Positions 1-51,568 of a stretch of DNA of 64,000 bases are shown here, piece by piece. The notes beneath the pieces were generated by a model. That model searched no databases. It was not told where the DNA came from and saw only the letters and a list, made by a program, of their open reading frames with translations. Position numbers and translations under genes: made by a program. Origin of the DNA: Amoebophrya sp. A120 (lineage: Eukaryota > Protista > Dinoflagellata); NCBI GenBank assembly GCA_905178155.1, contig CAJINV010000007.1, positions 1,841,151-1,905,150 of the forward strand, written 5' to 3'. The stretch's first letter is position 1; every line of letters begins with the position of its first letter.

Positions 1-1610
1 CGTGGAGGATAAGAGCAGCAGTGTTCGAGAGCGGGAACATTTGGCGCAGAAGCTCCGACTCTGCTTCATGCCAAAACATCAATGCCAGGGCGTTGCAGTA
101 GGTGTTCTTGTCTATCTCTCCGAAGCGTTCAAACGAGTACCAGGCGGGAAGCTTTCAAGGTCTTCTGCCAGTGCGTCCACCATCACCGCGGAAGCGGTGC
201 CAGCGGTGAGTGGTTGGGGCGGTGGGTGAGAGATCGAGGCGCGTTCGAAGAGTTCCAAGAGGTCTCGAGGGGCCTGCGTACCAAGCCCGCACGAGCCGGC
301 TTGCGGCCTTTTTTGGGTCGCGAGTACGTAGGGCCCGGGGCCGCGAAAAAGATGCCCGGCTGCGCCTGTTGGGCGTGCTGTGAGTGCCCGTGGGCCTGCA
401 CGAACCACAAGCACACGCTGTGCTACGACGAGCGAACCTGTGGCGACAACGCGGCCCTGGTGGTGTCTGGATACTGGCGGCTACCTCTCCTTTTCCGGGA
501 ACATCGTGTGCGACATGGGGATCTTCACCCCGGCCTGGCCGTATCGCATGGGTGTGCGGGTGCTCGATGTCAGCTGCAGTGCGTGTCCCCGCTTACAATC
601 TCCGGCTGTCGCTGCGGTTCTCTCCTGTGCTCACGGTAGTTTTGGATGCCAACCCTTCTCGCTGCTGTTCTGCCAGGTTCGGGTTTTCCTTGAGGTCTCC
701 CTCTCAGAGCCCGCTCGTCTTCAACCCAGTGCTGTCGTCGACAAACCTCTGTCTGAAACTCCCGTTGCAGGACGCTCGGACTTTGGGGCGTCTTCGCCAC
801 CGGCAGGAGTCAGGATGGGTAGATGGGCTTCCTCGCTGTTGCCTGAGCTCTGCTCGCGTCTGGCGGAACTTCTTCGTGCCAGGGTTGCGTTGGGTCGTAT
901 ATGCGGGTCGGAGTTCGCCGGGCACTCGTCAGTTTGGACGGTGCGCTTGCGTCCAGCCGTCCTCCTGGCTGCTTGCAGTCGGTTATATACTATGTCCCCC
1001 CTGGTCTCGTGCTGTTCTGTCTGACTGGTGATGGCTTGGTTGCAGCCAGCGACTTGTCGCTCCGTTTTGCCGCCACCACTGTCTGGTCCCCGGGCTCCCA
1101 GGCGCGGGAGTGTTGGGTCACCTGGTCGGGTTGTCGTTCGCTGCGGTGTCTCTCACGTCCCAAGCTCTTCGTGCTTGCCACTGGGCACAGTCGAGCGCCT
1201 TGTGATCGCCGCCAGTTTCTAAGAGCTGAAACTATAGGCTTTCACACATGGGGAGGTTCTTTTTGCCCCCCGGGACTATGCCTCTGCTCCCGTCTAAACT
1301 GTTGGGCATCTTCTTCCCCTTCGGTATTCGGGTGCAGGGAAGGGTGTTCGGGGTTGCTTCCCCCTCGGTTCTCGATGGTGGGTCTGCATTTGTGATCGCG
1401 GGGCAGTGGTTGGTTGAGGTTCTGTGGAGTTCCTCCAGGTGATACTCCCGCTCCTCTACCCGGCGGTGATCTTGCATCACAGCCACATGGGGCCACCCCG
1501 TGCTCAACCCCAGGGGATTATGGCCCCCTCTTTTTCGACGCGTTCGGACTGAGGATTGTTCCATTTTCCCTTAGTGACATCACCTCAGGGTTCCAGGGGT
1601 TCCAAAGACA
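1..1610. mobile_element. GC-rich insertion (probable transposable element, left end outside the window) nested inside the GH7 introner
   Basis: Similarity to the introner family at 8427-8678 stops abruptly at about 1609. The segment 993-1610 is bounded by TGTC...GACA (LTR-like ends). A protein-like minus-strand frame (KLPAWYSFERFGEIDKNTYCNALALMFWHE...) runs off the window from about 155 to 1. No diagnostic RT or integrase motif seen. Confidence 0.45.
410..456 (+). repeat. Exact 47-bp copy of GH7 sequence at 1662-1708
   Basis: agcacacgctgtgctacgacgagcgaacctgtggcgacaacgcggcc occurs at both 410-456 and 1662-1708. Confidence 0.97.
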
Positions 1611-1662
1611 GCATCACAAGTTTGTTGCAACCTTCCAGATCCAGACACTTTTGCATTCGATA
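1609..1662 (+). mobile_element. Right end of an introner (family B, as 8427-8678) in the GH7 gene
   Basis: cagcatcacaagtt...ttccagatccagacacttttgcattcgata matches cagcatcacaagtttccagacccagacatttttgcatttgata at the end of 8427-8678, and directly abuts GH7 coding sequence. Confidence 0.85.
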
Positions 1663-2404
1663 GCACACGCTGTGCTACGACGAGCGAACCTGTGGCGACA
1701 ACGCGGCCGACCCGCCGATGCGTTACAACGGGGAGTGTGACAAGGACGGGTGCGATTTCCAAACGAACCGGCTGGAAAACCCGACCGCCCCAGCGGAACC
1801 GAGCTACTACGGACCCGGAAAGAAAGTGGACACCACCCAGCCACTCACCGTCCACACTCAGTTCATCACCAGCGACAACACGCCCAACGGCGACCTGGTG
1901 GAAATCCGGCGGTACTACGAACAGCCGCCGAACTCCGGCACTTTCATCGACAACATGGTCTGGCAGGACGACTCGGGCTGCCACCACAAATCGCTCACGG
2001 ATTCTTTCTGCCACAAGTTCGTCGATGCCGTTGGCGAGAAACACGAACACGAACAGGGCGGGTTCATTGCGAAGGGGAACATGAAGGGCATGGGCGAAGC
2101 GATGAAGTTGGGCATGGTGCTGGTGCTGTCCCTCTGGAACGACTGGGAGGTCCAGATGGATTGGCTGAACTCCAATCCGTTCCCGAACAAGATGGGCGCG
2201 GACGGCAAACCCCACTTTGGCACCTTCCGGGGGCCGTGCGAACCGAACAAGTACGACCGCGATTTCACGGAAGCGGCCGGCTTTCGCGAAAACCGCAAAA
2301 CCAGCTTCAGCGACATCAAGGTGACGGGCATTGGGTCCGGGGGCGTGCCAAACAAGTACGCCGATGGCAGTACATGGAAGGCGGAATGCAAGGCGGCGCG
2401 GTGA
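1663..2404 (+). CDS. Glycoside hydrolase family 7 cellulase (cellobiohydrolase/endoglucanase), last exon; 5' part outside the window
   Basis: GH7 motifs CDKDGCDF, YYGPGKKVDTTQPLTVHTQFIT, GDLVEIRRYY and MGEAMKLGMVLVLSLW..MDWL. Confidence 0.93.
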
Positions 2405-3568
2405 ACAGGAGGAGACTCGTTTTTGCGGCGGCTATGATGAACAGGGAGTCAGTGGCATGAAAATGCTAATCCTGATGTTGGTGGAGAAGAGCACTCGAAT
2501 ATTTTTGTTCAGTGTTTTTCGTTTTTCTTTTTGCTAGTAGCATATCTTTCAAATTTATCAACTACTTTTGGCCTATTGTGGCGTGCCGTGTCTTCTGCAT
2601 CATGTTCACGTCGACTCTACTATGTCTGTAAAACAACGTATCACGAGCGTACTTATTCAGAAGGTTAAGGTTTCATTTTATGTCTGCATCATCATGAAGA
2701 TGTTGCCATGTACGATTCATTTTGATTTCTCTAATTCTCCTTCTGTATCAAGACTGTGAACGACGACAAATATTATCAGACAGCATACAACACGTGATGC
2801 TGTGCTGGGACCTGATGCTGAGTGGTCGAATTTTTGTGATTCATGAGAGGACTTGCCTGAGTCTGTGTCCGGTAAGCCTGGTGTCGCAGTAGCGGCACGA
2901 AGATGAAGTTGTGATTACTCAGTGACCACCACGACCTCGACCATACCACAATTTACAATTTTCAAAAATCGCTCCAACAAACATCAGCAGTCGTATCGAG
3001 TTAATTTCATCGTGGAACGAAATAAAAAGGCGGTGACCGAGAGCCGGTGGCTAACACCCTTATCTAAAACTCTGCCACCGTGGTCGCAGTGTTTACATGA
3101 AGTTTCATCGCGTATCTTCATGTCGGTGTTCGGATGTTTGCGAATTTGTCCCGCTAACAACGCCTGAAAGATGGAATGACGACCCAATGACATTGATGAT
3201 GAACCACCATTCTTAAATAATATACGCAATAGCGAAGAACAAGTAAAGTGATGAACTAAGTAAGCGAAAGCGAAAGGACCCATCATGCGAAGCAACGGAC
3301 ATGCATACCGCTCCCCGGCACGTCTGTTGCAAGAGGCTGATAGGTGGATAAACGTACCAGATCTCTTCATGAGAGCACCACAGACACGTATCTCGGCCTA
3401 AATTTAAGTAAGTACTTACATGATCATCGCTGGAGCTCAGCGCTTCCACAGCCCTATGGTATCCTAATTCTCCGTAAACGCCAACAGAAAAATGAGACCC
3501 AGAGCTCTTCCCGTGATTCACAATAAATTCGAGTAGAAATTAAGATCTAGTAGCTCCGGGCCAAAAAA

Positions 3569-4366: not shown

Positions 4367-5368
4367 GGAAGCACTCTGTGGCAAGGGCTCCCGCACTTCA
4401 CATCAATTGGACTGAAGTACTAGAATGAAAGTACTAGCTGCGTCATGGACGAAGCAGAAGATGCTAGTGAAGATAGAACGTGCTGCAACTACGACACTTG
4501 TTTGTTTCGCAAAATGTGAATGATTGCCTTTGCTCCCTTCATCACATCTAGCAGGTGAGTTTGAGTTACGTGCTTCACCACAAGAATCCGCCGTGATCTT
4601 GCACTCACATTGTGATAGAGATCACGCCTGTTGTTCAAAAAATCCTCAGTGCCGGTGCTAATTGAAAATTTAAATTCACTGAAAAGATCCTCCGCGTACG
4701 CGCTTGAAAGGATGATAAACGACATGCGGCACGCCACTTCTAATTTTGTGCATTAGCGGCCAGAAGAGTTCTGCGCCGACGATCTATAAATTGCAAATGC
4801 CTGCTCATCATTACCCATGCACGAATCTCGTACTCCTATGCGCACTGGATTTAATAGAAGTTGCTCTCTCTGACTCTGCGTGAAGTCTCCTTGCACGGCC
4901 AGTTAAGATGTTGCATTTCGTTTTTCGAATACAGCAGGACGCAAATAGCTACGGGCAGCATACTAGTTTTCAATTTCATAGTCTCCAACTAGCTCCTTTT
5001 TAGATAGAGCGCCACATCATAAAAACAAGAAGCATAGTTGAAGTTGTCCTCACCAGTTGTCATAAGGTATCACGGGGTATTCGTATTGTTCGCGACATAG
5101 TTACATACGACAAGAAGTAAATAAAGGTCCTTCGTTCTACTTCGAACATATTTCAATCCTGCGGCGACGACACGACAAACAAGACAACGATCGTCACTAC
5201 CTAGTGCTAGTTAGTGAAACGGAACGGCTATAAAATTCGTAGATATCTATCCAGGGAACGAACCCAAAGCAACTACAGTGGAGGTACTTATCACCGCGGA
5301 GCATTTGAAGCAACGTAGTTTACTCAACATAACGACACCTCATCCTCACCTACCAAATCGTTGAAGCC

Positions 5369-8300
5369 ATGGCGCAGTTTGGTCTCCGTCCGAATATCAT
5401 CCTCCTGCGGGACGGGACGGATAGTTCCCAGGGCAAGCCGCAGATTATCAGCAACATCAATGCGTGCTGTGCGGTCGTGGACATCGTGAAGTCCACACTA
5501 GGTCCCCGCGGCATGGACAAGCTGATGGTGGACGAGGGTGGTGAGGCTTTGGTCACCAACGACGGGGCCACCGTGATGAAGCGACTCAATGTGGTCCACC
5601 CGGCAGCGAAAATTTTGGTGGACATCGCAAAGTCACAAGACATGGAGGTCGGAGATGGAACCACATCGGTGGTCGTGCTGTGCGGTAGGAATTTTTGATC
5701 ATGATCATGATGTAGATTTTTCTACTGCAGTTTTTCGTATCTAATGCTAGCGACTCCACGCATAGCCATTGGCATAAAGCGGTCGTGTCTTTTTGTCATG
5801 CCAATATGCAAGGCTGGATCTCAATCAACAACAAAAATTAGGCGAGTTCCTCCGCGAAGCTAAGACGTTCTTAGAAGACGGCGTCGTGGCTCAAACCATC
5901 ATAAAAGGCTACCGCAAAGCGGCAGAGCTGGCGCTGCAGAAATTGAAGGACATCAGCATCGATTTGTCCACAAAAGACCCGGCAGAAAAGACAAACATGC
6001 TGCGGAAATGCGGTATACTTTTTTGAATGGATTTCTCTTTTTTCGTGTCGCTTCAAATCTCCATCTGGTGCAAAGGTTTTGTTACACTGGCGTGACATGT
6101 AGTAAGTAGCGTTGTGGCGCTCGTTCTGCTGTTAACAGAATCTCCATCCTGCTTTGCTAAATTAATACACAACAGCGGAGACGACCCTGAACTCAAAATT
6201 GGTGGCTGACTACAAGGAATTCTTTTCCGAAATGGTCGTTCGCGCGATCCAGATTCTAGGCGACGACTTGGACTACCGAGGAATCGGAATCAAAAAGGTA
6301 TAAGGTTAAGGAATTTCTGTTGCACCAGATGTTGCCTTTTGCGCAGACCCTGTAAATAAGAAAGAGAACAAGAAGACACCTCCAGAGAAAAAACTTTCAT
6401 GTCAACATCAGGTCACGGGCGGCAGTGTGATGGATTCCACGCTGATCAATGGCGTTGCCTTCAAGAAAACCTTCTCCTACGCCGGCTTCGAGCAGCAGCC
6501 CAAGAGCTTTGTGAAGCCAAAAATCTTACTTTTGAACTTGGAGCTGGAACTGAAGAGCGAAAAGGACAACGCGGAAATCAGAATCGCCGACCCCAGCAAG
6601 TTCCAAGCCATTGTCGACGCGGAATGGAGTATTCATCTGCAGCTTCTTGTTCGTTCAACAGTAGATGTACTACAGTTCTTATCGATCAGCACAAGATGAA
6701 GAGCCAGATCCGATGGCTATGATGCAAGCATAATGTAAGACTAAGATGACGATTGTCTTCCTGTATCGCTATCGTCGTCCTCTACTTCTCCGACCACTAA
6801 AACATTACAATATCCCCACGACAGATATCATCTACGAGAAACTGGACAACATCGCTAAATCCGGTGCCAACGTCGTCCTCTCCAAGCTCGCTATCGGCGA
6901 CCTCGCCACCCAGTACTTCGCCGACCGCGACATTTTCTGCGCCGGCCGGGTCGAGCACGCCGATTTGGACAGGACGAGACGCGCCACAGGGGCGGCTGTC
7001 CAGACGACAGTTACCGCGGGGCTGGACCCGAGCGTCTTGGGATCCTGTGGAAAGTTTGAAGAGGTGCAGATCGGAGCGGAGAGGTAGGATTTGATACATC
7101 GTTTTGTTTGACAGGCTGATGATTCTTTTCCAGCATGATCGTCTTGGTTTTTTCCCAAGTCTTCTGCTAAAAAAATCGGCTACACATCACGCAAATCGTC
7201 TTCGCACGACATCTTCATAGCACAACATCTTCATAGCACAACTTTATTTGTCAACAACATGCTCTATTGATTGCTTGAGCATGTTGATCTTGATACAACA
7301 TCACAGGTGGAACCTCTTCAAAGACTGCGAGAACACAAAGGCCGCAACATTGATTATCCGTGGAGGCGCTCAGCAGTTTGTGGACGAGGCCGAACGATCT
7401 ATCCACGACTCATTTATTATGAATGTGTCAGAGTTGAAATCGACAAAGTTGAAATAATTTGCCATGCATAAAATGGATGCCAGTTGGAGCCCAGTTTTCA
7501 AGTGGCGCATGACAAATTTCGGTGGTCCCTAAATCCAGTCTGTCATGCTGCTTAGGCAAAGAAGAGTGATTTTCTCATGCTACTTTAGCAGCTCGAGCTG
7601 TAACCCCAAACAGGCTTACAATCGGCCTCACTTGCCTGCTCTGCAACACACGTGCCTCGGGTCATGCATTTTATGCATTACAAATTATTTCAACTTTGAC
7701 GATTTCAAACCTGACGCTTCCATATTTATGATCGTGAAGAGCGCGACAAAGAACACCGCGGTAATACTACTTCAGGGTTTAAATTTCAATCTATATTTCT
7801 TTCCGATTATACTTGCGAGCACGGAGTCGGAGCACATGTGGTATGACTATGTATGATCATGATGTTCGTGTTCTTATCTTTGCTGTTTCTAGAGTTTGTC
7901 TTTGTCATGCCACCAGAAAACTTCCACTTATCACAACGAACAGATTGTCGGCGGAGGCGGTGCTATCGAGATGGAGCTTTCCCGCTACCTTCGGGAGTAC
8001 GCGAGGACCGTGCCGGGAAAGCAGCAACGGGTCATCGAGAACTACGCCAGAGCACTGGAAGTCATCCCCAGAACACTCGTCCAGAACAGTGGTAAGCTCT
8101 GGAGATGGTTTTTATTCACTGTTTCTGTCGCACTTAGTTCTAGTTCGTTGCAAAAGCAACATCAAAAAAGGGGCAGGTATTGAAACAAAGATAGAATTTC
8201 TGAATCTGATGCAAAATTTCATGACTTTCCTGCAGCGCCGCAACGAATCAACACAAATCAAATGCATTCTTTTAATCCCCCGCAACGAATCAACACAAAT

Positions 8301-9563
8301 CAAATGCATTCCCATGTTTATTTGATCCCCAGGCGGTGACGCCACGGACGTGATGAACAAGCTCCGACAGAAGCACACGGGCGCTTCCAGCACGGAGTCC
8401 CGGTGGTTTGGCGTGGACTGCATCGATATGAAATGCAAAAATGTCTGGGTCTGGAAGAATGCATGTTTGTCATGCTTGTCTGGCATGACTCTTAAATCTG
8501 TCACGCACGTTGCCCAAGAGCCGCATTTTTCTGTCATGCGGAGACGCAGTTTGTCATGCAGAATAGGCAACACCTACAAGCTCAGAAATTTGTCATGCTG
8601 AGCCAGCACTTGTGGCCTCATCATGAGATGCCACCCAGCATCACAAGTTTCCAGACCCAGACATTTTTGCATTTGATAATCGAGAACGGCGTGAAGGACA
8701 CCCTGGCGAACTTCATCTGGGAGCCGATATGACAGCCTCAGAATGGAAATCCTGAAAGTGGAAATAATTTGTAATGCAAAAAAACGACTCCAGTCGAAGC
8801 ACCATTTCTAGTCGGCGCATGACAAATTTCCCGGGCACTCAAAACGTGTCTGTCATGCTAGTTAGGCAAAGGGGTGCCCGTCTTTCGTGCTAATCAGCAG
8901 CCCAATTCTGAACCCGTAGAAGCACAATAGTCGGCCTCCATTGCGTTCTCTGCAATACAGTCTTTTACTTTTTGGTGTCGCATTTCATGCATCACAAATC
9001 ATTTCCACTTTGAGGATTTCCATTCTGAGGCTTCCATAGCCGACCACCGTGAAGGAAAACGCCATCTACGCCGCGACTGAGGCCTGCAACCTCATCCTCT
9101 CCATCGACGAAACCATCAAGAACCCGCAGTCCGAGCAGCCGAAGGGCGGCAAGGGCAAGGGCGGCGGCTATTACAATGAAAAATGCCCCCACCCCCGAAC
9201 TTGGGAGCATTTGTATTGCAAACCTTTCCAAATGAAACATTCGCCCTCTTGCATCTATCAGCATCACAGGTTTCCAATCGTGAAGAGCAAGAATTTGTCT
9301 TGCAAAAGACCCCAGCAAGAGCGGCGCTTGTCATGCAAGCGATGCGACACACGCCTAGACTCTGCATCAGAAAGATTCATACTCCTTTCATGCATGACAA
9401 AAGGTTTTCATTTGGAAACTTCGCATCACAAATTTTTGCAATTTCAGGGGTGGGGGGCATTTTTCACTGTAATAGCGGCAAGGGCTTCACCAACCAAATG
9501 GCCGGCATGGCACGGGGCGGCAAGGGCAGGGGCATGAAGCAACTGAGGAACACCATGGCGTGA
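5369..9563 (+). CDS. CCT7: T-complex protein 1 subunit eta (chaperonin CCT7), 12 exons: 5369-5684, 5842-6012, 6176-6297, 6412-6628, 6825-7083, 7307-7417, 7730-7760, 7944-8091, 8333-8426, 8684-8727, 9044-9168, 9480-9563
   Basis: [49 protein letters not shown] and [18 protein letters not shown]. Seven GT-AG introns and four introners; the frame is restored at each. Confidence 0.95.
7418..7724 (+). mobile_element. Introner family A (307 bp), TSD TTTAT, in CCT7
   Basis: tatgaatgtgtcag...ctgacgcttccata with about 55-bp imperfect TIRs. Removal gives HDSFMIVK. Confidence 0.93.
8238..8311 (+). repeat. Tandem duplication of about 32 bp (period 42) in a CCT7 intron
   Basis: ccgcaacgaatcaacacaaatcaaatgcattc occurs twice. 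Confidence 0.85.
8427..8678 (+). mobile_element. Introner family B (252 bp), TSD ATCGA, in CCT7
   Basis: tatgaaatgcaaaaatgtctgggtctggaa pairs with ttccagacccagacatttttgcatttgata. Removal gives GVDCIENGV. Confidence 0.93.
8728..9038 (+). mobile_element. Introner, diverged family A relative (311 bp), TSD GCCGA, in CCT7
   Basis: gcctcagaatggaaatcct pairs with aggatttccattctgaggc. Removal gives [11 protein letters not shown]. Confidence 0.93.
9169..9474 (+). mobile_element. Introner family C (306 bp), TSD GCGGC, in CCT7
   Basis: tattacaatgaaaaatgccccc pairs with gggggcatttttcactgtaata. Removal gives GKGGGKGFTNQ. Confidence 0.92.
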
Positions 9564-10838: not shown

Positions 10839-13800
10839 ATGGGTTTCGGTCTGCAGTGGGTCCTGTCCGATGAATCGCACTACCGGGAGTTTGTGTGCAA
10901 GATTTGTCTGGACCTGGTCGAACTCCCCGGGACGTACACCAAGTGCTCGCACGTGTTTTGTAACACGTGTCTCCGCCAGTGGGTGCACTCGCTCGCGGAC
11001 ACGAGAAGTAATGCGCCCGGCAACGATCATGATGGGTACTATCTCGACGCTTTCATGGATCACGCAGGAGGGAATGCCTTCGGAAGTGGCGGAGGTTCAT
11101 CCGCGAACGCTTTCTCTTTTTCCCCGCCCTCCGACCGCAGTGGTACTACGCAGACAGTTCCAACGATTCCCTGTCCCGCGTGCAAGGAGCCACTGACCAT
11201 GAACAGAGACCTTTTTGTCTTGCCGAAAAGGGAGCCCTTGGCGAGCCGCTTGCTGAGCAACATCCGGTGTCGATGTCCCTTGGAAAACGGCTGTCCCTGG
11301 CAGGGGGACTACTCGGAACTGCAAGCGCACTTAACAAATCGGGACGCGCACAACGCACCGAGAGCAGGCGGCGGGCTGGAAAATGCTAGTTCTACACCGC
11401 CGACAAAGATGGCGGGTGTCACGACTGGTACTAGTCGTGATAAGATGGACACCATATCAACACAAGAGGACGAAACAGCGCAGGTGACATGCCCCACGGC
11501 ACCAGGAGTGGGCGATACTGACGCCGCAGTATTTTCGACTCGTACCGGCGGCTCGACGAAGCAAGTTTCTGCACCGGGAACAAATGGTAATGGAAGCACT
11601 AACACTCCCACACTACCTGTACCTCCACAAGCCCAAACCCCCTCCATCTCATCTCCAGACTCATCAGACCCGAGTGCTCTGCTGAAAGAGCCCGAGGGCC
11701 TGAAAGAGCTCGGGAACGCCAGGTTCAAAGCCGGTGCCTATCAGGACGCAATACAGCTGTATTCGAAGGCCTTAGCGACACTCCCAGACATAACAAGCTC
11801 GGGCAGTTCATCTCGACCAGGCTCGGCAGCTTCCGGAGGACCAGCGAAGAACACGGGTAATGCTAATAAAACAGCTAGCGCAGCGTCCTCTTCCTCGCGC
11901 GCCGGGGGTTCTTCCCAGTTCATCTTGCCCCCTTCTCCACTCCAACTTGCCACTGAAAGATTGCAGGCCCGCCTGCAAGCCAACCGCGGCGCCTGCTGGA
12001 TGGCGCTCGGCGTGCACAAAAGCGCCGTTGCGGACTGTCAGGAGGCCTGCAAGGCTGACCGCTATTTCGCAAAAGCCTTCGTGCGGCTGGCGTCCGCGAT
12101 GTTTTTGTCGGGATCCAGTGTGCAAGAAGCCATCGCGGTTCTGATGGCAAGAATCGGACAAAACGAGCAAGATAATGTTTCTAACCTCAGCACATGCACA
12201 TCGCAGTCGCACACAAGCACATCAACTCCTTCTCTAGCCACCGCTTCCGAAAAGGACCAATGTCTGAAGGAAATCCGTGCAAAAGTCTCCGAATTCTCCC
12301 TCCTGGCATCCGCGTTGAAAGATGGGCAAGACGCGCTTTCCACCCTGCAAGTTCAGAAATGCGAGCACCTGTTTCAGCGCGCGCACGACCTGGCCGCGAC
12401 CAGCTTCGGCGCGACCCAGGTGCCGCCGGATTTGCAGTTGTGGCTCGCGCGGGCGAAAATCGCGAATGGCAAATCCGACCACGCGAATGGAGTGACCAGG
12501 AGGGTTTTGCGGGGGAACAAGACGAACGCCGAGGCTTTGACGGTGCAATCCACAATATTACTCATCGACGGAGAGACGGAAAAAGCGTTGCAATTATTGA
12601 AGGAAGCGCTCCGGCTCAATCCGGACTTGCAGGAGGCGCAGTTTGTTTTCCGGAAAATCGCGAAACCCTTTTCAAACGCCTTGCAAACCGGGCGGGAATT
12701 CGTGAAAACGCGAGACTTTGCGAAGGCGCTGGACGCCTTCCTCGTTGGGATTGGGTTGGTTCGCGAAAAACTACAAGCGCAGAGAAAGACGAAAGTGAAT
12801 GGTGCACCTACAACTGGTGCAGCTAAGGCTGTGCCAATAAACGGGTCGTGCACAGAGGAAGGACAGCAGGAGACTCCGCTGATTGAGCCAGTGTCTTCAA
12901 TTGCCAGTGGTTGTAGCGGCCAAGAACATCAAACCACTGGGAGGTGGCCCACGTCGACCAAGGATGAATCTAGCGCAATCTTCCCACCTCCGCCTCCGGT
13001 CGACACTCTCGCGAAGGAAGCCGCGGTTGTTCTCGGTTTATCGACCTCTGTGCTCTACGTGCAGCTGCTCTCGGAAGCGGCTACCGCGTCGTTTCGCTTG
13101 AAGCGGTATGACGCAGCGTTGAAATTGTGCAACGACGCGCTCTACGCCCGAGCCGACTACTATGGATGTGTCAGAGTTGAAATCGACAGAGTTGAAATAA
13201 TCTGCCATGCATAAAATGCAAGGCATGCAGTGCCTGTCTTGCCGGGATGGCAAGCGAGGCCGATTGTGAGCCTGTTTAGAGTTTGAAATAGAGCTACTAA
13301 ACTAGCATGATAAAAGCAGTCTCCAGTGCCTAAACAGCATGACAAATTGGATTCCGGTTCTTGGAAAATTTGTCATGCGCCGCTTGATAAGTGGGCTTCC
13401 GACTGGTATCGGTGTGATGCATGACAAACTATTTCAACTTTGACGATTTCGATCCTGACACACCCATAACTACCGCGACGCGATTGTGTTACGGGCAAAC
13501 ACGTTGGTGAACCTGGGTAGGTACCAAGAGGCGGTCCAATCGCTAGAGGGGACCACGCGGTCGATGTTTGAGCACGACGCCCTTGTCCAGCACGCGCACC
13601 AGAAGGCGGTGTTCGAATTGCGCAAATCACAGAGACCGGACTACTACGACGTTTTGAGTAAGCCGTACAAGACGACGCAACAGAGGCCAGCAGCGTGGTC
13701 TTCAAAGCAGGATGGCGACAACAAAGAGGACCAAAGCAGCTCAAACTGCGAAAGCGCAAATAATCCAGTTCCAAACGGTTCGTCAAATTCAGAAGGCGAA

Positions 13801-24985: not shown

Positions 24986-26058
24986 GAGCGGGGTCACAAA
25001 TTCAATCCTTAGGTCCGCACCGGACTTACGGACCACCCGGCCGGGTGGTCCTTAGGTCCGGTGCCCAAAAAGTTACTTTACGTAACTCCACAAGCTGCAG
25101 CAGCTGAGTCGGCAGAACTCTTACACGATATTCTGCATGTTAATGCTATTCATTTTCTGCATGAAGGGGCGGCTCTATGCCATAGGCTGTTCTGACGTAG
25201 CGCAAGAAGCTTCTTCATATGCACTAGGAAGGACTTCCTATTTGATTTGTGAAGCTATTTAGAAAGCTTCGCTTTTGATTTTGCATTGCAGTGCATTCGC
25301 CTTTCGCTAAAAACGTCACCCGTTGGCCGACGTCGTTCGCGCAGGCACGCCGACGTCGTTTGCGCAGGCACAGCCACAATTGTATCGGGAATGGCGGCGC
25401 CGCATGAAAATCAGCCGGCGCAGCGCCAGCGTCACCGCCACCTCTTCCTTCGCGACACGGTGGTGACGACCTCGACGCGGTGGTTTGTGACGTTGGTGTG
25501 ACTTGTCCGGCAAGTCGCAACGCAAAAACCACACCTCGCAACGCAAAAACCACACCAACGTCGCAAGCCACCGCGTCGAGGTCGTGGTCATCACCGTGTC
25601 GCGAAGAGGTCGTCATCACCGTGTCGCGAAGGAAGAGGTGGCGCCGTTCCCGATGCGATTGTGGCTGTGCCTGCGCGAACGACGTCGGTGTGCCTGCGCG
25701 GCCGAAACGACGTCGGTGTGCCTGCGCGAACGACGTCGGCCAACGGGTCCCGTTTTTAGCGGAAGCAGGCGAATACAGAAACTCAAACCCCTGTAAATGC
25801 ATACACTGCAATGCAAAATCAAAAGTGAAGCTTTCTGAATAGCTTCAAAAATCAAATTGGCATAGAGCCGCCCTTCATGCAGAAAATGAATAACGTGCAG
25901 AATCTCGTATAAGAGTTCTGCCGTCAGAGTGGGACTCAGCTGCTGCGGCTTGTTGAGTTACGTAAAAGTAACTTTTGGGGCACCGGACCTAAGGACCACC
26001 CGGCCGGGTGGTCCGTAAGTCCGGTGCGGACCTAAGGATTGAATTTGTGACCCCGCTC
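24986..26058. mobile_element. Non-autonomous foldback/MITE (1073 bp), 3-bp TSD CTA, PIF/Harbinger-like
   Basis: gagcggggtcacaaattcaatccttaggtccgc at the left end and its reverse complement at the right end. The arms stay complementary for over 400 bp. cta flanks both ends. Confidence 0.9.
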
Positions 26059-28182: not shown

Positions 28183-30151
28183 GTGCGCCACCGAGGGAAC
28201 CCTGATGCTGACAGACGGACCGGATGCGTTAACGTTAGACGCAAAAAGCTTCTCGCCGTCCCGAATGGACCAGTACGCGCCATGGAAAGTGAAGACGACG
28301 GGCCTGTATTTCCTGGCCATCAGTAACTGCGGCGAGACAGACTTCAGCTCCGGAAAGTTTACGTCAGGTACGTAAAAAAGCGTATGCTCATAGTTCTTGA
28401 CGGAGGAAGTGAGTGTCGCTCAAGGAGATCATTAGAGCACCGCTTGGAACGTAAATAGAAGTTGTTGTAATTTGAATTTCGCTCGACCACGATGAAGATT
28501 CTAGTCATACAACACTTCTTGCATCAATTCTGCTCAACTACAGGTGAGATATCAGTTATGACCAAGGCTGGGTATCTGCCAGCAGAAGAAAAGCCGATAT
28601 GAAGACCGAAAACCCATCGAGAAATAATAGAGGTCGCATCAGTTTCAAATCATGATCGACTGTTCACGCTCGTCATTTTCGTGACACACTTCACGCATCG
28701 AAAAGCAAAAGATGCTTCTTTTCTGTCGTACCCAATGAAGCGAAACTGATGCCGAGGAAATAAATTTTCTCCCTTTATTTCGTTTCCATACCAAAAGATG
28801 GCCTTTTACATGTATCTGGCACTGGGTTACGTGGGGTTGCTTTGCTGCTGGGCCGCTTACTGTTGGGCGTGGACAGATGTGCTGTTTTTAATCCATCACT
28901 TCATTTCCTGCGCGCTCATCTGCGGTGCCTTAGAGGTACTTAAAAAAATGACTGCAGTAGAATCTTTGTTTATTTTCACCACAGGCGCGGCGTTATATGC
29001 ATATAGGCTGTATGCAGCTACGACGAATGAACATAAAAGCAATGCATTTACGAGCAGATGAAAATCACGCAATCACACTCACCCCAGGCGACCTGTTGGT
29101 TTACGTCGCTTGCTCATTGGAACTGGACCGGACATCGGTGGTGGTCAATGATCGCGCTGGCAACTTTGGTATTCTGTGCAAAAGTATCGTAGTCGTAGTA
29201 ATCGCAATCATGAATTACAAATCTCCATCCCAAGGTAAAACAGCATGACAAATTTCATTTGGCATGCTGAGTGATGCGATTCATACTAGTACGATGCTTT
29301 TGCAATGCATATTTGGGCACGACGATTAAGCAGGGAGTCTGCTACGCACTGCTCTTGCTGGCCTGTTTGGGCGTAGGAGTGACACAACCGAAACCATCGA
29401 CAAAAACAGTACTTGACTAATTTTAAGTCCAGCATGAAGAACAACAACAACAAGGGAACACCAATTATGATTTATCTTCACAGAGTAATTATAATATATC
29501 CGTCTCGCACCGCGAATTGTAAACAGTAGGCTGGACCTCGTTCTTTCGGGAAAGGGAATTTAGCTTCGGCTTGAACTTGTTCTTGTTCTATCCGCAACTC
29601 CGTCACAACAGTTGATGCAGATTTTCGCACTCACCGTGGCCTTTGTGGTAACTGACACGTACCGGCAGTTCGCGATGGCGGAGCGCAGCACCGTCGGGTC
29701 GGACATGACCACTTTCTCCACCGTGCTCGTCGTCGCACCTGGTTCGTTCTTCGTGTCCTGTCTCTACGTCTGGATCCTCCAAGCCCTCCAAGAGACCATT
29801 TCCGAGCTGAACTCCACAAAACAAATCGTGAAGGCGGAACTCTACCGGTACCTGCGGCTCGCACTCGGGAGTGTTTGCGCGGTGGTCATCGCGTTGGTCG
29901 CGTACGAAACGGCGGTGGTCAGGCAGACAGATTTGTCCCAGAACTGGGACAGCAGGTGGATCTTCACCGACGCGGCCTCGCACTGCATGTTCTTCTTTCT
30001 CAGCATGGTGTTGATGTACCTGTGGCGCCCGAACGAAACCTCGCAGCAAATCGCGTACTCGCAGCAAATCGGGGACGACGACGGGATTGAGTTGGGCAAC
30101 CGAATGGACATGGACTTGGACGAAGAAGAGGGGGTTTCCACTTTGGAATAA
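28183..30151 (+). CDS. TMEM87/GPR107-like (lung seven-TM receptor, GOST family) protein; 5' exons lie upstream and are unresolved
   Basis: VKTTGLYFLAISNC, GYLPAEEKPKMAFY, IHHFI, YALLLLACLGVGVTQP, WILQALQETI..L...KQIVKAELYR and MYLWRPNETSQQIAYSQQI. Confidence 0.85.
28598..28790 (+). mobile_element. Decayed introner (193 bp) with degenerate TSD (GCCGA/CCAAA)
   Basis: tatgaagaccgaaa...tttcgtttccata with an internal IR gcatcagtttc/gaaactgatgc. Removing the element plus 5 nt gives AEEKPKMAFY in frame. Confidence 0.75.
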
Positions 30152-31360: not shown

Positions 31361-34300
31361 AATGAATTCGAAAAAAGCGATTGGCGACCGCCTGACGCAG
31401 CTCGCCGCGGACCTTCGCAAAAAGCAAGCGACAAAATCCGTCACCTACATCTCGAAGTCCCTCGATCAACTCGCACCGAGCGTCGAAAACACGCCGCATA
31501 TCAAGGAGCTCTGGGAGGAATTGCGGGGCTACATTCGAATCGGCTATTTGCAAAAGGCAGCGTATCTCCGTCGAAAGAATGATGTTACAACCAGTGCATG
31601 ATAGAAGCGGATTTTGGATCTTTTGGTTTTGTCATGCCGTTGTACCTGAAAGTGTATTGCTACAGCTACAGCTACACTTTGAAAATAATACGTTGAATCA
31701 TTGTGTTGCAGTGCTAAAAGAAGTAATCGAAAACGAAATGCAAATGACAATGCAGAACAAATCCGTTTCTGAGCCTCTTTGTAAGCAGCGGTATTCGTAT
31801 TTTCTTGTCGGTTGATACAGCGCACCTCTGCGACATCATCGCGCTGACATGGAGACACTTGGATCCGGTATCCAATATTTTCCTTCAACATTTATTTTGC
31901 TCGGTCGGTGACAGATGATTCATTTCAAAACAGCCGAGCGATCGCGCACCCTCATTGGAGCTCATCTTCCCGAACAACCATGATTGACTTCAACCTTTTC
32001 CTCTTTCCAGGTATCCGTGACTTCCACAACTGGGGTCACGCTGGTCGGCTCGGCCTTGCTCGAGCCTTCCGAAGCTTCCAGCAGAGACACGCACTTCTCG
32101 TTCGTGAAGGCCAGCCATGTTCCATCCTCGAGTGCACAGCAACTTCGTGGCAGCCCAGGCCTTGGGCAACATCAAGGAGAAGGTGAAGGTGAGTTGTCTG
32201 CAACCAGCAGTAATGTTAAAGCGAGCAGTCCGCTCTACAACACCAGGGGGAGCCGACAGGTCTATGACCGGGTCATGTCTCCGAAGCTCGGTGTGCGAAG
32301 GCGCGCACTCGACCCGCCGACGGCCATGGTAGTCGCCTCGCCGATGTATTTGACGCGGAATTATTCTCCTACTTTATCAACATCTACTCACGAAAATAAG
32401 TCGAAACCAGGGCCGGCCGTGCCCCAAGAGCAAGAAGTGCAAGCTCTTGCGACAAGGACGTGGTCAACAACACCCGGAACTGTAGCTTCTGCTTCCCCCG
32501 TCGTCGCAGCAGTAGATCTGCACCCAAGGAGTGACGCTCCGGTAGCCTCCGCCATGCCTCTAGTACCGGTAGACGAAGAAGGAGAAGACGCTGGTCAAAA
32601 TCTTAAACGAAATGAGCTGCAAAGTGGCCGGCGCGGCGGACCGGGTGAGCGTCGACGGCCACAGCCTCAGCCAGCGGTGCAAAACGTGTTTGAGAACATG
32701 TTGACGGAGCACGAGCTGGAAGAGGAGCGGCTACAAAACAACGAAGAGTACGTGTTAGAGCATATTCTGGACAATCGGCACTACAAAGACATCGACGTGG
32801 AGGCTTTCATGCACGACCACACGAAGCGACGGAGTAGGGCCGCGGATGCAGCTTCGGTGAACAAACAAGGGCTGAACAGTACCTATCAAGAGGAACAAGG
32901 TAAAGATCTGTACCTCCAGACCCTCCGACGCAAAGCGGACAAAGCGTCCACCGGGTTCAAACATGATGCTTCCGTGGAAATCGACGAGGTGACGCTGCAC
33001 GCGGACACGATTACCCGGCAAATACGCTTGGAAAACGAGTACAACGTGCAGCAACGGTTACTCGAGTTGAAGAGGCAGCGGGAGGAGAGAAGTAGAAGCG
33101 CTGCTGGGGCGGACGAGAATGCATTGCTCGAGAAACGGAGACTGGAAGAAAAGCTCGATTACGAGAAACGGATGGTGGAGCACAACGCGAGACACACGGT
33201 AACCAGTGTGGTGCGGAAGCACGTACAGACGAGTACCAAAGTATGGATGCGTCAGAGTTGAAATCGACTAAGTTGAAATAGTTTGTCACGCATGAAATGC
33301 AAGGCATGAAATGCCTGTCTTGCCGGGTTGGCAAGTGAGGCCGACTGTCAGCCTGTTTAGGATTTGAAATAGAGCTGCTAAAGTAGCATGACAAAAGCAG
33401 TCGTCTGTGCCCAAACAGCATGACAGACTGGATTCCGGTGCTCGGCAAATTTGTCATGCACCGCTTAGAAATTGGGCTTCCAACTGGTATCGAGTTTATG
33501 CATTACAAGTTGTTTCAACTTTGTCTTTGACGATTTCAATCCTGACGCTTCCATACAAAGAGGTGATTTCAGCGGAGCGCGAACTCAGGGAGCAAAGCCA
33601 TTACTTGCCAAGGCCGCAAACACAATTATCGGTTCAGCAGCAGCCGACAGAGGCGAGTTTGCCGCGTCGGCGGTCGAGCACTAGGTCGTCGCCCAAATCC
33701 AGGTCCCGGTCGGGGTCGAAGTCTAACATGTCCTCTCCGAAAATGAAAAATAGACCCGAGCAGGGACGAGCAGGTATAGGACGTTCCGGTAGCCGTAGAA
33801 GCCGGAGTCCATCTCATCTTCATCTACAGCGAGGTGGAACTGGAAGCCAAACAAGGGACGTCGCCGACGAGCGCGTTCCCCGCCCCGTTTGGAACAGCAG
33901 GGTGATCGCGCCGAGCCACTTTGATCCGTACCACAAAACCTCCCCGTCCGCGAACGACCTGGATTTTGCAAGGGAACTGCTCTTATCCTGTGCAAAAATA
34001 TGATCGCACTCGTACTAATTGCATTTATGCATTACGAATCTCGTTCCCGTGGCAAATCCGCATTTCATACAAATTCAATTTGTAATGCTGAGCCAATTTG
34101 TATTGCAATTTATACTAGTACGCTACTTTTGCAATTCATAGCTCTCCGCAGCGCACCGGCGCGCGGGGACGACCACTGCCGGTCACAGTCATCACCACGT
34201 ACATCATCCATCGCACTGGAAACACCCGGGTACAGTGCCGAAAAAGCACCGCGGCGCCTCACGATATTTGCACGACCCTACAGAAAGGAGCGCTCGGGGT

Positions 34301-37300: not shown

Positions 37301-39529
37301 GGAACTTCTACAACAGCAGCGACGACCCGTGGAGCTGCATCCGCAGCGACGACTTCCACTGTTCAACAACAGGAGCCAGGAGAAATGACGATGAAAAACG
37401 CCAGCAAACCCCCCGGAATAATTATTCCGAAACTGGCACTAAGTGCTATTTCCGGTTCCGCCTCTATTCCTGTGCCTGGAGTGAAGGTGAAGCCGTTGGC
37501 TCCACTAAAACAAAGAGACGACGGGTCATCTACAGCTTGTGATCGGCCTGCTGCTGTAATGACAACCAGCGCCAGAGCGGCTTCCAGCTCCAAATCAAAG
37601 TCCAACACCAGTGCCTTGCTTTCCGTCCCGAGCTCCCCCTTCCTGATCACCCCGCTCGTGATGCCACGGGTAACCGGAGTGAGCTTGGTGCCGAAAGTAA
37701 GTAGAACGAAGTCTGTTTCTCGGAGTATCCCCTCCAGTAGAGTGGGAAGTAAAGATATCCTGAGAAAAAAGCGTTACAGTTACACATTGTGTTGCTGGCC
37801 AAGCAAGACAGACAAGCTCTGTCATGCCGGACATGCATAGGGGCCTCGTTTCATACGTGTTTTCCCATAGGATTTCTGCATTACATACAAACTTTCTCTC
37901 TCATGCAGAGAAATTCGTGTAGTTGCTGAATTCACTACAAATGTGTAACTGTAACACTTTTTTCGTGGGATAAAAGAGAAAGTGAAAGGAACTAAAGAAA
38001 TCACAGGGTTGAAAAAGACGTCGACAACCGCAGCAACTGCTTCTGCGGGGCAGCACCAGCAGCAGCACGACGAAGTTGATCTCGCAGAGAAGTACAGCGC
38101 TACCCTCGCGACGAAAGACAAAGAAGAAGAGACCCAGAAGATAAAAGTCTTCCGGAACTACGGGATCAAAAACCGGAAAGGGGTTCAACAGAATAAAGCA
38201 GCAGCTGAAGTGGAAAAAGTACACCAGTCCCATCAAGCTGCAGAACAAGAGCCGACAAATGCCGAAAAAGAAGACCTTCCTTCCCCAACGCCGGATGAGT
38301 TCCACGATCCAATCATTCTGCGCGACAAAGCTCTGCTGGCGCTCCTGCCGAAGCCGGTGCCTGTCACGGAGAATTCACGGAGCCCCATGGGCGGGGGTCG
38401 TCAAACAGGCGAACAATCGGCGAAACAGCAGCGAGGTACCACGACAGGTGGAAATAGTAGAAACGCAGGCTCAACTACAACACCAAATCGAAATGCCGTC
38501 GTGTCCACCTCAAAGCTGAATCAGTACAGCAACAGGCGTACGAACATCCCATCTTCGGACACGAGCAGCAAAACCGGTGCAGCAGGAGAGCCTGCTCAAC
38601 TATTGCACTACGACTCGTCTCCTTCTGACTTCATCCCGGTAGCAAGACTGGTGGAACTTGTTCCGCGGGGGGATGACGGCGGTGCCTCTGCGCAGGTATG
38701 AGAGTGCGTAAAACCTCCTGTTCCGCCACCCCACCTCCCCTTCTTCATATGAATGAACTTCCTTGAAGAGCATAAACAGGAACTGAGAGACACCAGCGAA
38801 CCACCTAAAGCCATCCAGCCTGCCGGCATGCTGGTAAGTTCATGCGCGGAGTGCAGTGCATGTGCAACTGTTTCTTCTTGTGCTCCCTCCACCGAGATTT
38901 ACGATGCAAACAGTTCCACAAGGCAGCATACTGGATTTGGGACTTCGTAAGTATGACAAATGAGGGGGCGGGGCGACGAGTTGTAGTTCTTGCGCACTCT
39001 CATAGCAGGAGGACGAGCTTAACACGGAATTTGACTCCAAGTACTCCGTCCCATCAAAGGACGCAAATGGTAGAGAGGAGCAAACTGCCATCGGCAATTT
39101 TCACTTGTTCTATCCGTCTTCTGTCGCGGGAACTGGTGGAGCAGGAGCTGCAAGTCCGTCCGCAAGACAGAAGAAGTCTCTGAACTCCAGTATGACCTCC
39201 TCAGGTGTTGCATCTCTGTGATGCAAGAAGTGCAATATCATTACGCATGGCAATATCAATACGCATGACAAGTTGTGGAGTGCCAAACTGCATTCGAGGA
39301 ATCCGGCGAGACTTGTATTGTAGAAAGTGGAACGCGCCGTGCCCGTGTGGCAGCTCGTCTCCTGCTGATCATGCAAGAGAAACACAAAATCCAGTTACTC
39401 TGTTGTAGTAACGCTTGAGATTTATCACTTGAGAAGGTTATATCTAGCGTGGCGCTCGATATCACAGAAGATTCCATCGCGAACATGCCGCTGCGAGACT
39501 TGAGTCACAACGACCGGGAGCAGCAGTAA
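31361..39529 (+). CDS. Large unknown low-complexity/coiled-coil protein (over 2000 aa) interrupted by three introners and several ordinary introns; ends approximate
   Basis: ORFs at 31984, 33407, 34235 and 37982 join in frame after removing the elements at 33242, 33984 and 37756. Short flanking exons near 31361-31555, 31712-31790 and 38914-39529. Confidence 0.7.
33242..33555 (+). mobile_element. Introner family A, inverted-core variant (314 bp), TSD CAAAG
   Basis: tatggatgcgtcagagttgaaatcg...cgatttcaatcctgacgcttccata. Removal gives TSTKEVISAE. Confidence 0.93.
33984..34140 (-). mobile_element. Introner family D (157 bp), reverse orientation, TSD GCTCT
   Basis: The reverse complement aligns to 42520-42667 and 55747-55891. 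Removal gives RELLSAAHRR, in frame with ORF 34235. Confidence 0.9.
37756..37972 (+). mobile_element. Introner family E (217 bp), TSD AAAGA
   Basis: tatcctgagaaaaaagcgttacagttacacatt pairs with aatgtgtaactgtaacacttttttcgtgggata. Removal gives GSKEKVKGT. Confidence 0.92.
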
Positions 39530-40743: not shown

Positions 40744-43700
40744 ATGTCTTGTCCCACCACCATGAGCAATAAACAAGTTGCAGCGGAGCAGGTGGAGGTT
40801 CCTAACAGAACCGCAAGAAGTTCCACGGCGACAACGCCCAACTCCACGGCGATCCGAGACCAGGAGCAGGAGGGCGGTAGTGCCTTCTACCCGGCGCACC
40901 ACCTACTGCAACATCACAAGTCGGAAGCCAAAAAGGCCCGGGTTCTCCGGAAAGACCCGTACCTTGGCCGCAACGTGAGGCGCACGGACCGGAAACGGTA
41001 CTCGGACCTGTTTTTGGAGGCCCAGGCACAGACGCAACACGCGACGTCTACAGGGGAGAGTCTTTTAAAAAATCACCCGAACGACAAGAAGGGCGATAAT
41101 TTTCTCCAGTTCCCCGTCGTCACTATCGAGGACCCTGAGACGGGGACCAAGCTCAGCCCCCGCTCGGCGCGCGGTCAGCACCTCTCCGCCGAGCAGATCT
41201 ACCATCAGAACTGCGTGAAGGAAACCAAAAAGCAGAAGAACAGACTTCTGAACCGCAGCTTGAGCCCGTCGAGTCTCGCCGGGAGCCCGTTCGTCAGCCC
41301 GCGGTCCATGTCGACGTCCGGTTTGGGGCTTGCAGTTTCTGGCGCACCTCATACCACGTCCTCTATCGGCACCAATCAATACCCAGACTTGCAAGTGCTA
41401 CCGCGTCGCCGGATTTACCGCAAGGACCCCTTTCTGGGGCGGGACGTGCGAAAATCCGATCACAAGCCGTACGTCGAGTTGTTCCGCGAGTGTAAGGAGA
41501 AAAATCGTTTGACGCTCGGCGCAAAACTGTCGAAACAGTTCCTGCAGAACGGACCGGTCGTGTGCACTGGCGGGGATGGAATGAGTTCTGCGAGCGTCAT
41601 GTCTGCTACCGCTCGTCCAGCTGTTGTTCCGCGCAGAATGAGGAGTGAGCCGGCGGGGAACAAACTAAATGTGAAAAATGCCTCTTCTAAAAAACCGGTA
41701 CTGTTGAAACTGAACAAGGCGGCAGTTGTGGCTACGAAGGCAGATAACGCCAAGAGTAGAAGTGCAAAGATGGAACAAGAACGCCCCCAACACAGCACGA
41801 ACTACACCAGCGAACAACAAAACGATGCGGCACTTCTAGATCAGCAGCTGCACTCGCTACCCTCGACTCAATTTGCAACTCCGCGCGGGGGACTACAACA
41901 GCCGCTGGAGCTGCCGCCTGCTGAGACGCAGTTCTTCACGTATTTGTCCGATCTCCACACCACTACCAGCACGACCACAAGCGCGACGAAACACGACCGC
42001 CCGCTGCCCTTCTCTCATGGTGCGGAACAAGGTGGACTCGTCGCACAAGATCCTCAACGAGAAGAAGCAGAGGACGGCGACCAGGTTCGGCTCGCGAGCC
42101 AAGCCAGCACGACGCTTCTCGAGGATGGTATCAACAAGACCACCAGCACCATTAGCACCTATTCCATGGCGAAGACGAACTCCATGAACCGCACAACTAC
42201 GTCGTCGACTGCTGGCAGTCCTTCCAAGTTCATCATGAAGGAGGCCGAGGCTCTATTTACGACGTCGGCTATTGATGAAATTATGGAGGAGAAGTACGGG
42301 CACGTCGCCAGCAGCAACCGGGACTCGGACGACTGGGTCGTGTTGGAACTGGAAGACTGCGCGGGGGCCACTGCTGGAGCAGAAAACTACGATGTCGAGC
42401 AGATGTTTTTGGCAGGCTTTCTCCGGGACGAAAGCGAAAAGCACGCCCGTCTCCTCGAAGAGGAGCAAGCGGCCATGGTGTTGGAAGATCAGGACGCGGG
42501 CGTTTTCGTGCCGGTCCTCTATGAACTGCAAAAGTAGCGTACTCGTATAAATGCATTACAAATCTTCTCAGCATGAGAAAAAAAATTTGTAATGCGGATT
42601 TGACTTGACAAAAAGATTTGTAATGCATGATTGCAATACGAGGAGTGCGATACTTTTGCAGTTCATGTCCTCGACCGCCAGAACAAAATTTACGACAAAG
42701 ATTTCAACCTTCCTTCCGTTAACATCCAGCCGGTGCCGGTGAAGATGAATTTGGACTTGCATCCACAACCTTCGCAGAAGCTTTTCTCCCCCTTGAAGCA
42801 GCACAAGGCAAGCACATCTCCGACCGTAAAGCATCTCCGGGCCGTTCAGGGAACGACGGTCTTCGACTACCAGCCGATTGCGCGGAAAAACCACTCTACG
42901 CAAAGTGGCGCTGTGGTTCCGCCTGTTTCACCGGTCGTGACTGTAGGTGGGAACAAGATGAACAAAGACAGCTCGTCTGGTTGGCTGGACCAGGAGAGCG
43001 TCTCCTTGAGCTCACCAATGGCGAAGAGACAGGGAAATGAAAATAGCCAGTCCGCTGGAAGAGTGGTGACGAACAAAAAAAGTAAAAAGCTGATGCAACA
43101 AGCTAAAGCAAATCTAAATGTAAACAGTTCTTCGAAAGACCAACAGCAACAGCAGTCTCATCAACACCATCAACTTGGGCGTCGGTACGACAGTGTGGAG
43201 GACGAGATGAAAACTGAAGTCATTGACTTGATCGGGTTGGAGCAGAAGGATGCGATCCCTGCCACGCTCTCCGCAGAGAAGCTTTTTGAAGAAAATTTCC
43301 ATCAACACCAAATGGAAAAGACTGATACCCCACATTTCGGGAGCGATAATGGTGCTGACATGGTAGCCGTAGCAAATCGCGCAGCGGCAGCAACTGCAGC
43401 AGCAGGAAATAACGGAGATATTAAACTACCGCAATACAAGTCCAACACCGCACAGCTCCTTTCCTCCTACGGCTTGCCGGTCGAGCCGCACGAATTGCCG
43501 TCGGCCGGGGCAGCCAGGATGCAGATGCTGACTAGCAAGAAGGGGACATCAACTACGCCTGATCATGGGCAGCTCCTACTTCCCGCGCCGGTGCCGGTGA
43601 TTGGTGCAAGCAATGTGCTGACTTCGGCCGCCTCATTCTGCACAGTGATGCCGACGACTACATTAGCATCGGCACATCAACATGATCAACAAACTTCCAG

Positions 43701-51011: not shown

Positions 51012-51342
51012 ATATGACAGGGAGGAGATCATGTCGCAGTCACTTACTCCTGCACGACTTCTCTTTCTTTGTATCATCTTCATCTTGATCTTCTAGAAGA
51101 CGAGGTCAACCGCAACGTCATTGCTTCTGGAATGACCACCCAGTTGATATATCCTTTCTTTGTTGTACAACTACAAAAGAATCAACGGCCCATGTGCTGT
51201 CCGCTTCAACTTCATGAAGCCAGAGCCTGTGTTCAAGTCGGGTAATCGTACCAGCAGGCGTGTGCTCCTGCTGCGCCAAATTTATGGTCGAGAGGGAGAG
51301 GAGGGCCCGGGATATAGAGGGAAGCAAGCACTTCTGGCAATG

Positions 51343-51568
51343 CTTCGATCTCGATTTCCTTCGATGGTGAAGTTAGTGTTTAATTATATCTTTCTCGGGA
51401 TTTTGTTTGTTGCGTTTGCGCCACCTTGATGGCCACGACGGAGGAAGTCGCAACCCTTCGATCTCGATTTCCTTCGATGGTGAAGTGTTTAATTATATCT
51501 TTCTCGGGATTTTGTTTGTTGCGTTTGCGCCACCTTGATGGCCACGACGGAGAAAGTCGCAACCCTTC
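51343..51568 (+). repeat. Near-perfect tandem duplication, period about 113 bp
   Basis: cttcgatctcgatttcc...aagtcgcaacc starts at 51343 and again at 51456. One 4-nt indel and one substitution seen. Confidence 0.93.

Follow-up and report, generated by a model that had tools for sequence, protein, structure and literature searches.

A putative intron-less copy of the host GH7 cellulase exon junction within a long introner of Amoebophrya sp. A120

How could an intron come to hold a copy of the exon junction that it interrupts? This question arises in a window of 64,000 nucleotides from the dinoflagellate Amoebophrya sp. A120 (GCA_905178155.1, contig CAJINV010000007.1, positions 1,841,151 to 1,905,150), which opens inside a long introner in a GH7 cellulase gene. 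A first-pass annotation, made from the letters alone, reported an exact 47-bp copy of the introner's 3' boundary within the introner itself. We compared the window with itself and confirmed that 410-456 is identical to 1662-1708, a direct repeat of a length for which ~2e-19 exact pairs are expected by chance in the window. The features of the locus are listed in Table 1.

Table 1. Coordinates of the features at the introner and the adjoining GH7 exon (positions in the window).
Feature	Positions	Strand	Observation
Multicopy interior, left part, continuing out of the window	1..399	.	X5 summed depth 300-730 vs 24 for single copy
Microhomology of 6 bp between repeat interior and GH7 exon, left joint	394..399	+	Nearest sister matches to 399, exon path from 394; chance ~0.001
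Putative intron-less GH7 junction, 63-bp copy	394..456	+	410-456 = 1662-1708; 394-439 common to exon-1 contig (X5, X7, X1); in frame with exon 2
Target duplication, predicted 5 bp, single copy inside the captured piece	411..415	+	Letters = 1663-1667; family duplication 5 bp in 145/149 elements listed
Stretch private to this copy, right limit ~750-790	457..756	.	One X5 contig, depth 22.6, over 427-817; T-rich like 757-1550
Short inverted likeness (14/15) to the element's own right end, weak	463..477	+	10/20000 shuffles and 0/1502 other windows reach the score
Interior, right part, patchily common to other copies	757..1581	.	X5 depth 40-230; one contig (depth 194) in four patches
Right terminal inverted repeat, TAT...ATA introner family	1582..1662	.	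Profile positions 186-262, E 1e-16; family also at 8427-8678
Target-site duplication, predicted right copy	1663..1667	+	5 bp in 11/11 TAT-type window elements and 145/149 listed elements in loci
GH7 cellulase downstream exon	1663..2404	+	PF00840 positions 237-433, E 2e-44; best homologues 40-46% identical

The annotation also proposed that ~394-456 represents a spliced or pre-insertion allele across both exons, with 394-409 belonging to the upstream exon. We found that in three of four runs (X5, X7, and X1; X9, a small share, has 0 contigs on 300-560) a contig matches the window from exactly 394 and carries nine further letters before it, which read T-T-H ahead of A-C. No exon-1 branch was seen in the contigs of run X4. 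The catalytic motif is present in 117 of the 120 GH7 homologues listed, and 112 of the 117 motif-bearing ones have H-x-C followed by C after 7 residues, as in the 394-456 junction. The identical T-T-H-A-C motif occurs in one of the listed homologues. Since the contigs match from 394 and the upstream letters read T-T-H, a GH7 motif, we identified 394-456 as an intron-less junction. Judged from its letters, this piece is an intron-less (empty-site) allele of the host GH7 cellulase gene spanning both exons, in which ~20 letters from the upstream exon are followed by a single copy of the duplication and 41 letters of exon 2, and it reads in the same frame as exon 2. The contig letters thus support both the two-exon reading and the assignment of 394-409, and the homologues agree with the C-x7-C spacing that the annotation had given for GH7. 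The GGGCC...GGCCC borders of the copy are present as letters (392-396 and 453-457), but they consist mostly of exon letters (394-396 and 453-456), and chance alone produces an inverted pair of this length in 3.8% of trials.

The internal copy overlaps the two exon ends by 21 and 46 bp. In X7, one contig has a 2-letter loss at 412-415 within the target duplication, which is likely a read error because several other 1-letter losses occur in that run. We also observed a start codon within the interior that opens a cysteine-rich frame (352-456), which enters the captured piece in frame with exon 2 and lacks the catalytic motif. The intron-less path has a depth of ~760-820 in X1 (a poor fit) against 806 for the exon; the same path is present in the DNA-like runs, and the RNA status of X1 is a guess. 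Downstream of the gene, contigs of X1 and X4, which come from one study, stop near 2990-3035, while X5 continues to ~5900 (from 1679). This is a weak hint of a transcript end there, ~600 letters beyond the GH7 stop.

To the right, the element ends as a member of a known introner family. A 262-bp profile built from 143 short family members matched the element only at 1582-1662, and the window contains one full member of the same family (8427-8678). A family likeness stretching left to 1471 was not above shuffles. The element is at least 1.66 kb long, its left part runs beyond the window, and its ends fit the description of Amoebophrya introners in PMC7789003. Four end motifs were not found in 12 of the 14 supplements of PMC12130899 (all but files 13 and 14). 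The inverted likeness at 463-477 was not above background when compared with the whole family.

Elsewhere in the window, eleven TAT...ATA-type elements of several families all have 5-bp duplications (7418-7724, 8427-8678, 8728-9038, 9169-9474, 13161-13468, 29170-29311, 33242-33555, 33984-34140, 37756-37972, 42520-42667, and 55394-55700), and 55746-55900 is a further member of this type whose ends were mis-called by the scan. Two other elements, at 24986-26058 (1073 bp) and 46254-48199 (1946 bp), end in GAG...CTC, carry long inverted arms, and show duplications of 3 bp (CTA and TAA), with longest stop-free frames of ~200 residues; they presumably resemble PIF/Harbinger elements. The window also holds a tandem duplication of ~115 bp at 94% identity (51337-51568) and, starting at 5368, a putative gene for a chaperonin (CCT/TCP-1) subunit.

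If the piece were a programmed part of the element, as the annotation's targeting guide or splint would be, sister copies should carry a slot that varies to match each insertion locus. Three other X5 contigs depart from the window, at 391, 394, and 399, and all go on with one shared motif ending in a G run plus CC, as seen in the 30 loose letters visible in each beyond its departure point. Their depths are 127 (listed), ~44, and ~27 (solved from bin sums, residual 0.19), against 23-24 for a single copy. From this continuation and these depths, a constant sequence stands in place of the GH7 piece in at least three, and probably about eight, other copies. The window copy lacks the shared motif. 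On the other side, at 80% likeness, X5 and X1 each have a single contig over 462-560, with no other copy, and therefore there is no shared scaffold to the right of the GH7 piece. The captured fragment is not amplified with the element, as 427-817 is at single-copy depth. In these letters the sister copies lack the GH7 piece at this place, and the piece is most likely private to this copy. The expected variation was not found: the sisters share one sequence after 391-399, and 462-560 is private.

We next consider whether other introners hold their own site. None of 14 other elements in the window has its own junction elsewhere, and their longest internal match to their own flanks is 14 letters. 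Metagenome contigs were scanned with the end motif, giving at least 131 loci from one other assembly with at least 149 paired elements, mostly 240-280 bp long, of which 145 of the 149 listed have a 5-bp duplication; 76 left ends had no partner and fell outside the own-site count. After removal of one 7,783-bp mis-pair from the 149 listed pairs, 0 of 148 members held their own site, with a longest junction-spanning match of 7 and a one-sided match of 8, compared with 46 here. These controls represent short members of the end family, none with the 1-1600 interior, and not the long subfamily. Matches of 14-32 letters between listed members and their flanks proved to be the ends of neighbouring introners and disappeared under the junction test. 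A guide or splint system, for which sisters lack the slot and no listed member carries its own site, was accordingly not upheld.

Five listed members (481, 496, 631, 697, and 972 bp) carry unrelated cargo, and since such long members exist, foreign inserts are ordinary in this family. Four of them lie at L036 9533-10028, L036 4631-5602, L024 3862-4492, and L023 571-1051, and one of these cargoes is an A-rich tandem array. The introner at L069 765-1461, of the same end family, contains a nested piece of ~440 bp; a C-x-C-C...H...C frame on the minus strand of this piece stops ahead of a short microsatellite, and the piece thereby resembles the 3' end of a truncated non-LTR retroelement.

The annotation placed the copy within a separate, nested minus-strand element, and the interior gave little to establish it. 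There is no second inverted-end pair within 1-1610, and 757-1581 has no match to the 262-bp family profile. Pfam returned 0 families for all six non-GH7 interior frames, and protein searches found no homologues; the sole match among 1.84 billion representatives was a tandem-repeat protein joined from summed weak stretches, which we rejected. The interior frames had no match in viral contigs, and neither Pfam nor the homologue searches identified a recombinase or nuclease in the in-window part of the interior. Silent changes between copies showed no significant excess in 18 region-frame combinations (best 9/19, p 0.074). Another interior copy has five extra letters after 194, which would bring two minus-strand frames into register. 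Interior depth falls from left to right in X5, which is only a hint of a nested non-LTR retrotransposon; its reverse transcriptase ORF, 3' tail, and own target duplication would be expected to the left of the window. The surroundings of the GH7 piece may belong to a nested element, or they may simply be what a long family member has between its ends. Base composition is uniform over 457-1550 and different in 1-393, and the AT skew of 457-756 is -0.43, compared with -0.45 and -0.38. The interior (1-1600) had no blastn match in the at least 131 loci (706 kb) of the other assembly, and a 20-letter pattern left of the slot had 0 matches in the metagenome contigs. Rfam gave no family match (one chance-level match, E 2.1), and the fold of 275-530 on the minus strand was not better than that of shuffled sequences (z +1.0).

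These results bear on the idea that, in long introners of this family, a segment specific to each copy records its empty target, or is refreshed from it, and guides insertion, retention, or excision as RNA or DNA. The copy is perfect and centred on the junction, and there are probably two such copies with right ends 4 letters apart. The stretch 457-756 is private yet interior-like in composition, so this region may vary in all copies. In addition, only this copy is well covered in X1 (203-363 vs 4.7 for another), as if transcribed, with the RNA status of that run again guessed. However, the sisters have a shared motif where the slot is and this copy lacks it, no conserved scaffold lies to the right, no fold or Rfam family was found, none of the 148 listed members and 14 window elements holds its own site, and the in-window interior has no identified recombinase or nuclease. 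IS110 bridge RNA systems and TnpB/IStron elements are mobile elements holding sequence that matches their own target, and in this they resemble the present element. Unlike them, it has one contiguous 63-bp match rather than short guide loops, with no two-sided conserved scaffold, no variable slot in its sisters, and no recombinase or nuclease found in the window part. The piece thus has neither the variable slot nor the two-sided scaffold that mark guide systems, and we judge a programmed record to be quite improbable.

An antisense interior RNA could also pair across the exon junction and align the exons for non-canonical splicing. An RNA antisense to 394-456 would be complementary to both exons, the interior is covered in RNA-like runs, and the accessible part of PMC7789003 leaves it open how such introns are spliced. 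Ordinary members of 240-280 bp lack such a piece (the same 148 listed), so this is not the general route. Moreover, no promoter, scaffold, or fold was shown, and the contigs carry no strand information; two raw-read RNA runs (X13 and X14) yielded 0 reads, so that the stretch was covered by contigs alone. A splint function is extremely improbable.

To place the copy relative to the exons, we used a contig graph of 31-letter words, judged from 30-letter overlaps, in which all 16 X5 contigs were accounted for. The core at 410-452 has three entries, from the interior, from the exon-1 end, and from the right end. It is left by three exits, to 457 onward, to exon 2, and by a third path that begins after 452, and the exit depths in the DNA-like run X5 are 22.6, 24.1, and ~18. 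The third path is not GH7-like; its resemblance to 453-480 was rejected, as 4835 of 20000 shuffles do as well. The branching points to a second ectopic copy of the empty junction in DNA, running from at least 10 letters before 394 to 452, so that the ends of the two ectopic copies are 4 letters apart (452 vs 456). Since its X1 depth is intron-like (325 vs 203-363 for the intron), the third path may be part of the same intron, beyond the left edge of the window, or it may belong to a truncated duplicate. Depths of contigs shorter than 60 letters are not additive and the X1 fit was poor (residual 127), and copy numbers were not rested on them. The exon-1 contig starts 9 letters before 394, and this start requires a path that leaves after 414. 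From this branch, the left end of the introner is expected right after 414, which would place the left joint one letter short of the 5-bp duplication, as a 4-bp overlap or a 1-bp loss.

The same graph can be read without any capture. Serial long duplications would leave 394-456 as target DNA between two insertions, the second without a left end; target pieces of 59 bp (394-452) and 46-47 bp (410-456) would be duplicated, and the junction would never have been cut at 414/415. The three entries and exits of 410-452, near single copy in X5, do string into one path, from exon 1 to the third path, from the interior to 457, and from the right end to exon 2, and the intron-like depth of the third path in X1 is consistent with this. 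A 6-bp microhomology is also typical of the joints of 5'-truncated retroelements, 463-477 resembles a left end, and one family member, L069, does hold a nested piece like a retroelement. However, the start of the exon-1 contig calls for a path leaving after 414, where the left end is expected, and on the right the element closes with an ordinary family end, after which the expected duplication comes. The likeness at 463-477 does not exceed the family background, and no duplication longer than 7 bp was found among the 149 listed members in a scan covering 4-7 bp. We consider serial duplication unlikely.

Because no contig spans the whole 47-bp repeat, the left and right pairing in the window rests on the assembly. 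Mis-pairing at the 47-59-bp repeat could have joined real pieces from different loci, and a third entry and a third exit do exist. However, each joint is bridged by contigs with 0 other letters (X4 297-439, 427-920, and 1135-1691; X5 370-423 and 427-817), so the ectopic junction adjoins the interior under any pairing. The window also contains longer repeats that are read through with no N, for example the palindromic element of 1073 bp. An assembly error of this kind is very improbable.

Among the origins that the annotation had listed, a template-switch or repair scar fits best, given the left microhomology and the restriction of the piece to this copy. We therefore favour, as the probable though far from certain reading, a private, one-off templated insertion copied from the empty allele through microhomology-primed template switching. 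A break inside this long introner copy would have been repaired through a template switch to an allele of the gene that lacked the intron. The broken end, carrying the six letters 394-399, would have paired with the empty allele at 17-20 letters upstream of the insertion point, and copying would have run to 456 before a switch to other DNA. Microhomology was seen at the left joint (6 bp). Candidate templates would be an empty sister chromatid at the time of insertion, a precisely excised chromatid, or spliced mRNA. DNA is the more likely template, because both ectopic copies straddle the insertion point and random mRNA pieces seldom would. Repeated priming on one template would also account for the second, overlapping copy that ends at 452, and neither splicing nor targeting is predicted to depend on the captured piece. 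Two junction-centred copies, however, exceed what one accident needs, and the left joint in the graph, one letter short of the usual duplication, also counts against a one-off insertion.

The favoured templated insertion shares several features with inserts made by polymerase theta or microhomology-mediated template switching, in which nearby DNA is copied, the joints show microhomology, and copies overlap (accessible sections of PMC5068794; compare PMC8421209). Overlapping templated inserts made by repeated priming are described for polymerase-theta repair in the available part of PMC5068794. The same part gives templated inserts as mostly <25 bp long and prone to error, with a source no more than 10 bp from the break. 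In contrast, the present insert is 63 bp long and free of errors, lies more than (at least) 1.2 kb from the right end in terms of its template, and needs an uninterrupted allele as that template, which argues against a one-off insertion. Like templated insertions, it is private to one allele and has its template in the same locus, the host gene.

The element resembles Amoebophrya introners in its inverted ends (TAT, seven variable letters, and an A run), its direct repeat at the boundary, its insertion into coding sequence, and the many families in one region, as described in the accessible parts of PMC7789003 and PMC12130899. It differs from typical introners in length (at least 1.66 kb vs ~262 bp), and from the described ones in holding a copy of its own empty site, which is absent from the descriptions in those parts of both papers. 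A literature search, with most subscription journals outside its coverage, found no introner holding its own empty site. Pack-type elements likewise have inverted ends and carry host exon fragments (PMC13317346, available sections). Unlike the Pack-type fragments presented there, this one derives from the very gene that hosts the element, straddles the element's point of insertion, and is not amplified with the family. The Pack-CACTA route in those sections captures DNA between neighbouring insertions, a process that would yield no empty junction. Break repair templated by spliced mRNA also writes an exon-exon junction into DNA; the accessible portion of PMC12065846 describes it for human cells and gives whole-intron deletion as its signature, whereas at the present locus the intron is retained and contains the copy of the junction.

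Read as a one-off insertion, the locus would be a rare fossil, in which an intron-less template was copied at this site after or during insertion, and it bears on how introners insert and are lost. The overlaps with the exon ends would, as we infer, let two homology-based deletions remove the intron precisely. The other reading, that long introners record their own empty target, with a region at ~400-756 holding junction-centred copies as possible antisense guides for targeting, retention, or splicing, is doubtful and carries a low probability. If true, target-recording long introners would be the first such case among eukaryotic intron-forming transposons. If long members carry such records as a rule, this would give a testable answer to the question of site choice or splicing in non-canonical introners.
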